NCBI GenBank assembly: GCA_965242835.1
Contig: OZ251506.1
Location: forward strand, 3,034,494 to 3,098,493
From: Vicinamibacterales bacterium
GTDB lineage: Bacteria > Acidobacteriota > Vicinamibacteria > Vicinamibacterales > UBA8438
DNA: 64,000 bases
Reading direction: 5' to 3'
Shown: positions 12,043 through 29,034 of the stretch, piece after piece
Numbering within the stretch: the stretch's first letter is position 1
Layout of the letters: each line of letters begins with the position of its first letter
Made by a program: the position numbers and the translations under genes
The notes under the pieces: generated by a model
What the model saw: only the letters and a program-made list of their open reading frames with translations
Databases searched by the model: none
Told to the model about the DNA's origin: nothing

Positions 12043-14043
12043 GTGACGAGAAACGGGACGCGATTCGCCGCGGCGGTGTGTCTGTGGACCCTGGCGGCCG
12101 CGGCGCCGGCGAACGCGGAGGTGATCCAGGTGACGGTCACCTCCCGCGAGCCGTTCGGCGAGGACGTGCCGGACAAGGTGGGGCCGTACGAGCGGATCCG
12201 GGGGCGGGTGGTCTACGCGCTCGACCCGGAGCACGAGGCGAACCGGGCGGTCGTCGACCTGCGGCTCGCCGCGCGCAACGGCGAGGGCCGCGTGGAGTTC
12301 TACGGGGACTTCGAGATCGTCGCGCCGCGGGACCGCGCGCTGGCGCAGCCGACGGTGCTCTACGACGTCAACAACCGCGGCCGCAAGCTGTGGGGGACGC
12401 AGCCGTTCTTCCTGCGCCGCGGTTACGCGTCGGTCTGGAGCGGCTGGATCGCCCAGGTGCGGCCGGAGCCGCCGCTGCTGCGCCTGGAGGCGCCGGTGGC
12501 GCTCGACGAGGACTACGTGCCGGTCACCGGGACGGTCCGCGCGGAGATGATCGGCGACGCGAAGACGGAACGGCTGCCGGTCTCGGACCGCGGCCAGCTC
12601 GCCTTCGCGCCGGTAGCCGCGGCGCTGCCGCGGGCCACGCTGACCCGGCGGCTCCGCGAGCGCGACGCGCCGGAACCGATCCCGCGCGAGCGGTGGGAGT
12701 TCGTCCTCACGCGGGCGGCGCGCGAGGAGGGGAGCGGGCTCGTCGAGGCGGACGTCCGGCTCGATGGCGGCTTCGAGCCGGGCGTGATCCACGAGCTGAC
12801 CTACGAGGCGTTCGGCTCCGTGGTGCAGGGGGCCGGGTTCGCGGCGATCCGCGACTTCGTGTCGTTCCTGCGCCACGACGACTCGCCGCGGAACCCGCTG
12901 CGCGACGCCCGCGGCCGGCCGCTGGCCCGGCGCGTCATCGGCGAGGGCCGTTCGCAGAGCGGGCGGGCCCTGCGCACGTTCCTGTACGAGGGGTTCAACG
13001 CCGACGAGCGGGGGCGCATCGTCTTCGACGGCCTGATGCCGGTCATCGCCGGCGGCGGCCAGGGCTTCTTCAACCACCGCTTCGCGTCGCCCACGCGGAC
13101 CGCCACCGAGCACGCCGGCCACCTCTATCCGGTGGACGTCTTTCCGTTCGCCTACGGCGAAGAGACCGATCCGTTCAGCGGCCGGACCGACGGCCTGCTG
13201 CGCCGGGCGCGCGCCGCGGGCACGGTCCCGAAGGTGATGCACCTCGACACCAGCTCCGAGTACTGGCACCGGAGCGCGTCGCTCGTGGTGACGGACCCGG
13301 CGGGGCGGCGGGACGGCGAGCTCCCCGGCGACGTGCGGGTGTACGTCTTCGGCGGCTCGCAGCACAGCCCGGCCCGCGGCCCCTCGGAGCGGGGGCGGCT
13401 CGCGCCGAACCCGAACGTCTACCAGCCGTTCCTGGAGGCGCTGTTCCTGGCGCTGGACCGCTGGATCACGGACGGCGGTCCCCCGCCGCCGAGCCGCCAT
13501 CCGCGCATCGCGGACGGCACGCTCGCCGGCTGGCGGGCGGAGGAGGCGGGCTGGACGCCGCTGCCCGGCGTGCGGTATCCGACCGCGGTCCAGCAGCCGG
13601 ACCACCTCGACTACGGCGAGGAGTTCGCGTCGAAACGGCGCATCGACCGCCACCCCCCGGTCCGGACCGGGGGGCGCTACGGCGTGCGCGTGCCCGCCTT
13701 CGACGCCGACGACAACGAGGTCGGCGTGCTGCGGATGCCCGCCGTCGCGGTCCCGGTCGCCACCTACACGGGCTGGAACCTGCGGAATCCGGCGATCGGC
13801 GCGCCGGACGCGCTGCTCGGGCTCGCCGGCGGGTACGTCCCGTTTCCGAGGACGAAGGCCGAGCGGCAGGCGTCCGGCGATCCGCGTCCGTCGGTCGAGG
13901 AGCGTTACGGGAGCTTCGAGTCCTACCGGGCCCGGGTCCTGCGGGCGGCCGAGGCGCTGGTGGCGGAGGGCTACCTGCTCGCGGAACACCTGCCGGGCGT
14001 CGCGGCGCGGGCGGAGGCCAACCGCGGCCTGTTCGACCGGTGA
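12043..14043 (+). CDS. Secreted alpha/beta-hydrolase-domain-like protein (uncharacterised family)
   Basis: GTG start 8 nt after GGAGG, within long ORF 10948-14043 whose first 365 codons are Arg/Gly noise. Signal RFAAAVCLWTLAAAAPANA. The body is GC3-rich and protein-like (GEGRSQSGRALRTFLYEGFNADERGRIVFDGLMPVIAGGG...). Family assignment is from memory only. Confidence 0.6.
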   Translation: MTRNGTRFAAAVCLWTLAAAAPANAEVIQVTVTSREPFGEDVPDKVGPYERIRGRVVYALDPEHEANRAVVDLRLAARNGEGRVEFYGDFEIVAPRDRALAQPTVLYDVNNRGRKLWGTQPFFLRRGYASVWSGWIAQVRPEPPLLRLEAPVALDEDYVPVTGTVRAEMIGDAKTERLPVSDRGQLAFAPVAAALPRATLTRRLRERDAPEPIPRERWEFVLTRAAREEGSGLVEADVRLDGGFEPGVIHELTYEAFGSVVQGAGFAAIRDFVSFLRHDDSPRNPLRDARGRPLARRVIGEGRSQSGRALRTFLYEGFNADERGRIVFDGLMPVIAGGGQGFFNHRFASPTRTATEHAGHLYPVDVFPFAYGEETDPFSGRTDGLLRRARAAGTVPKVMHLDTSSEYWHRSASLVVTDPAGRRDGELPGDVRVYVFGGSQHSPARGPSERGRLAPNPNVYQPFLEALFLALDRWITDGGPPPPSRHPRIADGTLAGWRAEEAGWTPLPGVRYPTAVQQPDHLDYGEEFASKRRIDRHPPVRTGGRYGVRVPAFDADDNEVGVLRMPAVAVPVATYTGWNLRNPAIGAPDALLGLAGGYVPFPRTKAERQASGDPRPSVEERYGSFESYRARVLRAAEALVAEGYLLAEHLPGVAARAEANRGLFDR

Positions 14044-29034: not shown

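Follow-up and report, generated by a model that had tools for sequence, protein, structure and literature searches.

Six consecutive minus-strand genes in a 64,000-nucleotide stretch of the genome of a Vicinamibacterales bacterium (GenBank assembly GCA_965242835.1, contig OZ251506.1, positions 3,034,494 to 3,098,493, hereafter the window) are read here as a single co-transcribed, horizontally mobile anti-phage defence cassette. A probability of about 0.6 is given to this reading. Three layers are distinguished in the cassette: a core of two helicases and a DNA methyltransferase (genes 1-3), which is assigned to ARMADA type I; a nuclease (gene 6); and a cargo (genes 4 and 5), which is a Septu pair. 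What the analysis shows is gene content, family assignments, conservation of the block, swappability of the contents of one slot within it, and the degeneration of a Vsr nuclease domain together with its association with gene 6. Discrimination of self from non-self by methylation, the role of gene 6 as effector of ARMADA and the independence of Septu are inferred.

At a G+C content of about 73%, calling of open reading frames (ORFs) in the window is noisy, and a frame plot of third-position GC (GC3) was used beside the ORF list. Both back six consecutive co-directional genes. The features are as follows (all on the minus strand).

Gene 1, 23710-29034, minus strand: ArmC-like DExH helicase of the YprA family, 1774 aa, to which OB-CON-DUF1998 is fused.
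DUF1998/MZB zinc-binding module of gene 1, 24115-24411, minus strand: residues ~1542-1640, Pfam PF09369 at 32.3 bits.
Degenerate Vsr/DUF559-like C-terminal domain of gene 1, 23713-23967, minus strand: residues ~1690-1774, from the C-terminal alignment.
Gene 2, 20918-23713, minus strand: ArmA-like BrxHII/RapA-type SNF2 helicase of 931 aa.
Gene 3, 16968-20915, minus strand: ArmB-like PglX/Eco57I-type N6-adenine DNA methyltransferase of 1315 aa.
25-codon relay ORF, 16894-16971, minus strand: extra tandem copy, of ~74 nt, of the junction between methylase end and PtuA start.
Gene 4, 15653-16897, minus strand: Septu PtuA ABC-type ATPase of 414 aa, embedded cargo.
Gene 5, 14852-15652, minus strand: Septu PtuB HNH nuclease of 266 aa, embedded cargo.
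Gene 6, 13971-14846, minus strand: terminal HNH_2 nuclease with a conserved core at 14094-14846 and an N-terminal alpha/beta domain of ~105 aa.
tRNA-Lys(UUU), 29171-29245, minus strand: found with ARAGORN; it lies 137 nt upstream of gene 1 and marks where the inserted block begins on the left.

The ORF list, the frame plot and a motif search found the six genes, their motifs and their junctions where an earlier description of this DNA, made without database searches (the sequence-only reading), had placed them. Gene 1 carries TGTGSGKS at residue 120, LDELH at 240, QRGGRAGR at 1067 and CYRCLMSYYNQ at 1636. Gene 2 carries DDVGVGKT (124), VDEAH (228) and LTATP (262), gene 3 carries DPACGSGHFLL (506) and NPPW (767), and gene 4 carries GGGKT (36), LIDEIDLHLHP (282) and TTHSP (314). 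The stop of gene 1 and the start of gene 2 overlap by 4 nt (GTGA). Genes 2 and 3 are separated by 2 nt, and genes 3 and 4 by 70 nt with the 25-codon ORF inside. The TAG of gene 4 directly abuts the ATG of gene 5, and 5 nt lie between genes 5 and 6. A consensus scan of 13000-30500, which is weak for high-GC genomes, gave no match to a sigma-70-type promoter; its sole terminator-like match falls within gene 1 (25934-25949), where chance alone would give 4.8 such matches in the scanned stretch. By this consensus-based, and for high-GC genomes weak, scan neither a promoter nor a terminator separates genes 3 and 4. The description of the genes as one tightly packed operon stands.

ARMADA, the disARM-related Antiviral Defense Array, is built on YprA-family helicases (Bell et al. 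2025, bioRxiv 10.1101/2025.09.15.676423). Its helicases have their nearest counterparts in Druantia, and its SNF2 helicase and methylase are shared with DISARM class 1 (10.1101/2025.09.15.676423). The type I order is YprA helicase, then BrxHII-like SNF2 helicase, then PglX-like methyltransferase (10.1101/2025.09.15.676423). The ARMADA helicase normally has a C-terminal Vsr-type PD-(D/E)xK nuclease, which is marked "active?" for type I in the published table, and experiments are limited to type II (10.1101/2025.09.15.676423).

Judged by gene order, by domain set, by a DruE score far above that for DrmA and by relatives in the listed records, genes 1-3 are an ARMADA type I core and not a DISARM class 1 set minus DrmC. 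The latter had been proposed in the sequence-only reading, and is contradicted by a gene 1 score of 280 bits for DruE as against 53 bits for DrmA and by a gene order which is that of ARMADA type I. In Pfam, the DEAD, Helicase_C and MZB/DUF1998 domains of gene 1 all fall in one ORF of 1774 aa, which gives the domain set that defines type I, a YprA-family helicase with fused OB-CON-DUF1998. The fusion of helicase and DUF1998 module had been noted correctly, but the two parts are not DrmA and DrmB, and such a fusion is the rule in the ARMADA family. With PADLOC, gene 1 scores 222-280 bits for DruE as against at most 53 for DrmA and 72 for DpdJ. Its best PDB matches are 9tu7 and 9wae (2.0-2.1 kaa, deposited as 'DEAD/DEAH box helicase' and 'Helicase') together with YprA/MrfA 6znp; DISARM DrmA is absent from its PDB matches at E below 1e-5, and the NCBIfam models of DISARM DrmA and DrmB do not match it. 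By these profile and PDB scores, rather than by a tree of the YprA family, gene 1 sides with the ARMADA/Druantia branch and not with DISARM/Dpd. The Cys cluster CYRCLMSYYNQ is invariant in 70 homologs. Further invariant CxxC pairs (476/479, 599/602, 1366/1369 and 1381/1384) are seen in the sequence at places that would fit the zinc-binding modules of ARMADA helicases (a beta-barrel insert with at least two CxxC, and an insert in the OB region).

Gene 2 has the Pfam domains SNF2-rel_dom and Helicase_C. Its PADLOC scores are 592 bits over the full length of the DpdE model, 255 for DrmD, 197 for BrxHI/HII and 170 for HmaA; in NCBIfam it scores 290 bits for DISARM_DrmD (cutoff 610), 129 for RapA and 185 for DpdE (cutoff 500). 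Gene 3 has the Pfam domains Eco57I and N6_Mtase and scores 218 bits for DrmMI in PADLOC, and its relatives form more than 120 protein clusters at an identity of at least 78%. The order of genes 1-3 is the published type I order. Among the type I helicases of Table S1 are those of Pelotalea chapellei JAHDYS010000002.1 and of the Methylorubrum extorquens AM1 megaplasmid (10.1101/2025.09.15.676423). The helicase of locus L061, on the Pelotalea chapellei record JAHDYS010000002.1, is 45% identical to gene 1 over 95%, and for the homolog on the Methylorubrum extorquens AM1 megaplasmid the values are 44% and 92%; that these two genes encode the proteins of Table S1 is judged from contig and position, not from accessions. 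As in ARMADA type I, the helicase resembles DruE more closely than it does DrmA, and there is neither a PLD gene nor ArmD. The window differs from the published type in three ways: its Vsr domain is without the catalytic motif, the operon closes with a separate HNH_2 gene, and a slot between methylase and HNH_2 gene holds Septu as cargo. The C-terminal Vsr nuclease, predicted to be active in ARMADA type I, is thus kept in gene 1 as a degenerate domain. By analogy with DISARM and with the tested ARMADA type II, the methylase would mark host DNA, and incoming DNA that is unmethylated would be recognised and processed by the two motor proteins, the cell not being killed.

Relatives were collected by a methylase-anchored genome scan, which gave 80 loci with 10-kb flanks (individual loci carry handles such as L020); these were searched by tblastn with the six proteins of the window. 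The full six-gene order occurs in 26 loci, which are species-level genomes with methylases 73-89% identical to gene 3. They are metagenome-assembled genomes labelled Gammaproteobacteria, Vicinamibacterales, Spirochaetia and Alphaproteobacteria, so that the survey of six-gene synteny proposed earlier found the same order in 26 other species-level genomes of different phyla. In L020 (65% identical) the order is genes 1-2-3-6 without PtuA and PtuB, and gene 6 starts 8 nt after the methylase. In about 50 distant loci (42-55% identical) genes 1-3 lie together where the contig allows, a few being without a detectable gene 1 or 2; PtuA and PtuB were found by tblastn in none of these ~50.

Blastn homology between the window and the six-gene loci begins at the ATG of gene 1 (~29032) and stops where the conserved gene 6 core does (~14094). 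The flanks of the six-gene loci are unrelated to those of the window, and their tRNA neighbours differ or are absent. Because homology ends at the edges of the block and the flanks are unrelated, the six genes travel between bacteria as one block. At the right edge, the gene 6 tail (13971-14093, ~40 residues) is not conserved, homologs ending near 'HRSRIFR', and for this reason the transferred block is taken to end at ~14094. The last 73 nt of gene 6 (13971-14043) overlap the 3' end of a convergent Abhydrolase_10 gene (12043-14043), and a close relative, P0121 (91% identical), has the same gene 6 tail as the window. Beyond the tRNA-Lys at the left edge lie housekeeping genes (Pfam DUF2911, amine oxidase, URO-D). 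A scan of 28 relatives gave a tRNA (tRNA-Thr) at the equivalent position in L005 only. A mobile element integrated at the tRNA-Lys was considered and rejected, as the window has neither an integrase nor a repeat of the tRNA 3' end and the relatives are mostly not adjacent to a tRNA.

About one quarter of the six-gene copies are damaged, by insertions in L019 and L023 and as fragments in L004 and L022. In L019 (15234-17484) ~2.2 kb are inserted between PtuA and PtuB, and in L023 (12526-16739) the methylase and the PtuA start are interrupted by an insertion. In 13 distant loci, including L032 (9974-14366), the methylase region consists of two ORFs of ~1200 aa and ~224 aa, which may reflect a genuine split, the insertion of a segment or frameshifts of long-read assembly. 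Relatives of the cassette lie beside TraG, TraH, TraF and TrbC or on conjugative plasmids in L081 (13986-20765) and L089 (Mesorhizobium pMspAR02c), and ARMADA I-type helicases were seen on 65-73 plasmid records. This suggests plasmids as one route of spread. The cassette of the window adjoins an apparently decayed restriction-modification remnant (8367-11857). It comprises a type II methylase (8939-10792, PADLOC MTase_II at 695 bits), a GmrSD_C/DUF1524-like gene (10955-11857) and, in a patch of lower GC, part of a gene for a type II restriction enzyme (8367-8684), which covers positions 103-186 of a profile 274 positions long.

In the C-terminal alignment of the helicases, many distant relatives show a canonical Vsr/DUF559 signature, (A/P)DF..Y ... 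(Y/F)(V/I)DGPxH ... G(F/Y)xVVRF. Pfam DUF559 is above threshold in all six tested relatives that keep the DGPxH motif. It was not detected in the window, L041, L061 or L070, and the window gave no Vsr match. Two clades, that of the window and another (L034 to L068), are without the first catalytic Asp, and a deletion of ten residues takes out the 'GPxH' of DGPxH in both. Presence of a gene 6-type HNH_2 gene was scored by iterated search with hidden Markov models over the 80 loci, and only loci with enough flank were counted. All 38 loci with a degenerate Vsr motif have HNH_2 (two of them as fragments), as do 4 of the 25 loci with an intact motif. A neighbour-joining tree of the helicase minus its nuclease domain gave four clades and is compatible with gain of HNH_2 followed by decay of Vsr. 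Gene 6 is the terminal gene in clades A and B and part of C, and on plasmids. Plasmids served as an independent check. About 18 plasmid lineages have no detectable Vsr domain, and 12 of them, including the Methylorubrum AM1 megaplasmid, have a gene 6-type HNH gene 8-12 kb downstream on the same strand; it is found in none of the six lineages with a detectable Vsr domain (Deinococcus, Rhodococcus, Nocardioides, Roseomonas). In two annotated plasmid examples the helicases have no Vsr motif, and the full-length identity of the HNH proteins to gene 6 is 42-47%. The identity of gene 6 tracks that of the core across clades, the two co-diverging down to ~40% identity, and among genes 4-6 gene 6 alone behaves as a lineage-constant partner of the core.

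This pattern suggests a nuclease swap, in which gene 6 would stand in for the decayed Vsr nuclease domain. In view of co-inheritance and of complementary presence and absence, gene 6 would most likely supply the DNA-cutting step in trans, the Vsr domain of the helicase having lost its catalytic motif. The earlier proposal that HNH nucleases replace a missing effector is thereby plausible for gene 6, but is not supported for the Septu pair, which is swappable cargo, nor for the effector said to be missing, DrmC. It had also been allowed that genes 1-3 might belong to another known system with a nuclease already accounted for. With the Vsr domain of ARMADA this is nearly the case, but the Vsr domain of the window is degenerate.

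Gene 6 matches HNH_2 in Pfam, and its family is ~252 aa long. Conservation extends to the catalytic residues in SHxKPW and NGLLL, and the HNH residues include His166 and Asn184. With a family profile, a match at 4.7e-34 was obtained to the nuclease of VcaM4I, a modification-dependent enzyme of the EVE-HNH type, and there is a weak NCBIfam match to a PT-DNA restriction enzyme family. An AlphaFold2 model from 65 sequences has a pLDDT confidence value of 76, with 82-93 in the N-terminal alpha/beta domain of ~105 residues; an earlier model from a shallow alignment (pLDDT 41) was discarded. The best Foldseek matches of the model are VcaM4I and TagI, the VcaM4I alignment spanning 256 columns at a template modelling (TM) score of 0.37. 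The N-terminal domain has no match in Pfam or in a PDB profile search, EVE, SRA and SBD included. The resemblance to VcaM4I (EVE-HNH) and TagI (SRA-HNH) thus lies in the HNH_2 nuclease domain, the two-domain layout and the similar size. The differences lie in the N-terminal domain, which has no sequence match to known readers, and in the operon linkage of gene 6 to those ARMADA I lineages whose Vsr domain has decayed. In L027 (15771-16916), L072 (16870-18051) and L075 (19379-20515), which belong to the clade with HNH_2 beside an intact Vsr motif, the HNH_2 protein has a conserved extra N-terminal extension of ~130 aa, which the window clade does not have.

A possible but doubtful alternative is that three independent systems are stacked here, ARMADA type I, Septu type I and, as gene 6, a stand-alone type IV reader-HNH endonuclease. 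Gene 6 might then cut modified phage DNA that escapes the methylation-based system, as BrxU complements BREX, although this too is held to be unlikely. Its constant position could be put down, again with little confidence, to synergy and to service as a right-hand homology arm for cargo exchange, with no shared mechanism. The profile match, the Foldseek matches to two modification-dependent enzymes, the shared layout of N-terminal alpha/beta domain plus HNH and the weak PT-DNA match all speak for such an enzyme, as do gene 6-type genes without ARMADA in Chlorobium and an intact Vsr motif beside HNH_2 in clade C. Type IV enzymes in or next to BREX, Hma and restriction-modification systems are documented (10.1101/2024.01.29.577857), and ARMADA II gives no protection against hypermodified Tevenvirinae (10.1101/2025.09.15.676423). 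Yet no Pfam or PDB entry, EVE, SRA and SBD among them, is detectably similar in sequence to the N-terminal domain. Independence would also leave unexplained why HNH_2 accompanies every genome locus with a degenerate Vsr domain and is absent from 21 of the 25 with an intact one. The slot contents swap freely, yet gene 6 co-diverges with the core to ~40% identity. Given this complementary distribution and co-divergence, a trans-acting effector is favoured over an independent type IV-like enzyme.

Several points weigh against reading the six genes as one cassette of ARMADA core, substitute nuclease and cargo. The nuclease domain and the model of gene 6 are most like VcaM4I and TagI, which fits an independent type IV-like enzyme. 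The association between Vsr decay and HNH_2 comes from few independent events, and Fisher tests on it ignore shared ancestry and overstate its significance. An intact Vsr motif and HNH_2 occur together in one clade (L027, L072, L075, L078). All relatives come from one methylase-anchored scan, so that sampling is biased. The ARMADA/Druantia clade is defined by BrxA-like and MarR-like inserts, and gene 1 was placed in it by sequence alone; ARMADA type I is so far a bioinformatic prediction only. Finally, Chlorobium contigs have a gene 6-type HNH_2 gene without ARMADA genes. Six extra contexts of gene 6-type genes were inspected, and five of them are ARMADA-type arrays, Chlorobium being without. 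In the Chlorobium loci L087 (8099-10771) and L088 (5668-8340) an AAA_15/AAA_21 ATPase is followed by a 272-aa protein and HNH_2 in an island rich in toxin-antitoxin genes, with no helicase, SNF2 or methylase gene within 10 kb. The Chlorobium gene may be either a remnant or evidence of the HNH protein working outside ARMADA.

Genes 4 and 5 are a Septu pair, as had been recognised. Gene 4 matches PtuA in PADLOC end to end at 291 bits, has the Walker A, Walker B and TTHSP motifs, and matches PtuA structures in PDB, including 8ee4 and 9kjx, at E 1e-38 to 1e-34. Gene 5 scores 94 bits for PtuB in PADLOC and 77 bits in NCBIfam, and 47.2 for TIGR02646 as against a cutoff of 52.15. It matches 9n69_F, a TIGR02646-family protein, in PDB and has the CxxC...EH...N motif. 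The pair thus resembles Septu type I in its full-length PtuA ABC ATPase and adjacent TIGR02646-type HNH protein PtuB. It differs in that PtuB is just below the TIGR02646 cutoff and in that the pair is coupled to the upstream methylase by an ATGA overlap through a duplicated relay ORF.

In relatives the position of the Septu pair, between methylase and gene 6, holds other genes. Among them are HEC-01 A+B (an AAA_21 ATPase with DUF4276; HEC models are Hma-embedded candidates), a DUF3696 ATPase (best PADLOC model HEC-03B) with a ~180-aa protein and an RNA ligase, PDC-M56 A+B, and an LmuB/SMC-like ATPase. L075 has a reverse-transcriptase protein (1290 aa), L070 has DUF3644 and a Schlafen/AlbA_2 protein, and a Paracoccus plasmid (L090) has three small hypothetical proteins. 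In L083 (5312-10765) two modules are stacked, first a DUF3696 ATPase, a protein of 175 aa and an RNA ligase, then DUF2513 with a Schlafen/AlbA_2 protein. In L020 the slot is empty. As the gene contents of these loci indicate, the position between methylase and gene 6 is a recurrent embedding site that has captured at least eight different modules. Since the same slot carries unrelated modules or none in relatives, PtuA and PtuB are regarded as cargo. The earlier idea that they are an integrated replacement effector is not supported by this finding of differing self-sufficient modules, or nothing, in their place. Most likely, the Septu pair would act as an independent second line of defence that is co-expressed and co-transferred with the core.

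Defence systems embedded in others have been described, Septu inside Hma being the lead example (Payne et al. 2024, bioRxiv 10.1101/2024.01.29.577857). As in those cases (10.1101/2024.01.29.577857), a full Septu pair lies co-directionally between the genes of a helicase-methylase system, and HEC-01, an HEC-03B-like DUF3696 ATPase and PDC-M56 are found at the same position in relatives of the window. Here, however, the host is ARMADA type I, not Hma, and there is a single defined slot whose right border is the conserved HNH_2 gene.

The 25-codon "bridging ORF" between methylase and PtuA is accounted for by one extra copy of the ~74-nt junction unit in the window. An alignment of relatives shows a single junction copy in L001, L003 and L007, with methylase stop and PtuA start overlapping there as ATGA. 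The unit, made up of the methylase 3' end and the PtuA start, is present in two copies in the window (16894-16971) and in L004 (13905-14070) and in three in L002 (13900-14140), most relatives having one. Each extra copy makes a short ATGA-coupled relay ORF, and that of the window is ATGA-overlapped at both ends. Tandem Repeats Finder did not report the duplicated junction, which is visible only by aligning relatives. From this alignment, the 25-codon ORF is taken as a by-product of the duplicated junction which would still relay ATGA-coupled translation. Extra copies might tune the translation of PtuA, or might be a scar of replication slippage or recombination.

It is very improbable that gene 6 belongs with the cargo, as part of an 'ATPase + adaptor + HNH_2' system that repeatedly landed beside ARMADA. 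Most slot modules do start with an ABC, AAA_15 or AAA_21 ATPase, and in Chlorobium an ATPase, the 272-aa protein and HNH_2 stand together with no ARMADA genes nearby; but in L020 HNH_2 directly follows the methylase with no ATPase, the cargo is of other kinds in L070 (DUF3644 and Schlafen) and L075 (reverse transcriptase), the slot of the Paracoccus plasmid L090 holds three small unannotated proteins, and the ATPases come from different complete known or candidate systems (Septu, HEC-01, PDC-M56) while HNH_2 stays orthologous.

Equally little credence is given to the sequence-only reading in its full form, a six-protein machine in which DISARM class 1 (fused DrmA and DrmB, DrmD, DrmMI) without DrmC has the Septu pair and the further HNH protein as joint replacement effector. 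DISARM class 1 does share with the window homologs of DrmD, as SNF2 helicase, and of DrmMI, as large N6A methylase, a DExH helicase with a DUF1998 module and, presumably, discrimination by methylation. Genes 2 and 3 accordingly match DrmD at 255 and DrmMI at 218 bits in PADLOC and NCBIfam DISARM_DrmD at 290 bits, and all six genes are translationally coupled or nearly so and kept as one block. DISARM class 1 differs in gene order, and the window has helicase and DUF1998 in one polypeptide of another YprA clade. Every NCBIfam DISARM score is under its cutoff, the DrmA and DrmB models have no match, and gene 1 prefers DruE (280 bits) to DrmA (53 bits). As stated earlier, no PLD (DrmC) gene is present, the HKD motif occurring in no frame of the window and none of the six proteins matching PLD in Pfam or PADLOC. 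By the same regular expression, a crude test for PLD, no ORF of the window and a single ORF across the 80 related loci has the motif. PLD motifs are therefore scarce throughout the family, and DrmC, which this lineage never has, was not lost here. PtuA and PtuB match ordinary full-length Septu models and are absent from L020 and all more distant relatives, where unrelated modules stand instead. By these family assignments the integrated DISARM machine is largely refuted.

Three other systems were considered and rejected. Dpd came into question with DpdE as the best PADLOC model of gene 2, but the NCBIfam DpdE score of 185 is below the cutoff of 500, and genes of the DpdA-C type are lacking. 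Hma is centred on the DUF499 ATPase HmaC, with the HmaA helicase and the HmaB methylase (Payne et al. 2024, 10.1101/2024.01.29.577857). It was considered on account of the slot cargo matching HEC models; no DUF499/HmaC match was obtained, and gene 2 scores 170 bits for HmaA, far less than for DpdE and DrmD. ARMADA type II has ArmD, a GajB-like UvrD helicase with a RelE-like domain, and the order SNF2, methylase, YprA (10.1101/2025.09.15.676423). The operon has no UvrD-like gene, and its YprA helicase comes first.

ARMADA, Septu and the principle of embedding are already described, and the cassette does not constitute a novel kind of system. What is new is the pattern of Vsr decay with HNH_2 and the single, well-bounded cargo slot in ARMADA I. 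Tentatively, the window may represent a sub-lineage of ARMADA I which out-sources cleavage to a two-domain HNH_2 protein, the dead Vsr domain perhaps being a docking site, and in which the slot has come to favour recombination and its cargo is coupled to the methylase. If this is true, expression of the back-up system would depend on translation of the primary system. PrrC, which lies within EcoprrI, senses failure or inhibition of its host system. If embedded systems also sense failure of their hosts, this would amount to a general guard architecture for YprA-based immunity. The lineages provide a natural experiment, with an intact Vsr domain without HNH, both together, and a dead Vsr domain with HNH, and this contrast makes the question of which protein cuts DNA directly testable. 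The slot is a useful hunting ground for new defence genes, and the compact six-gene block of ~15 kb, found across phyla at ~75-90% protein identity, is a handy unit for testing synergy between a methylation system and Septu.

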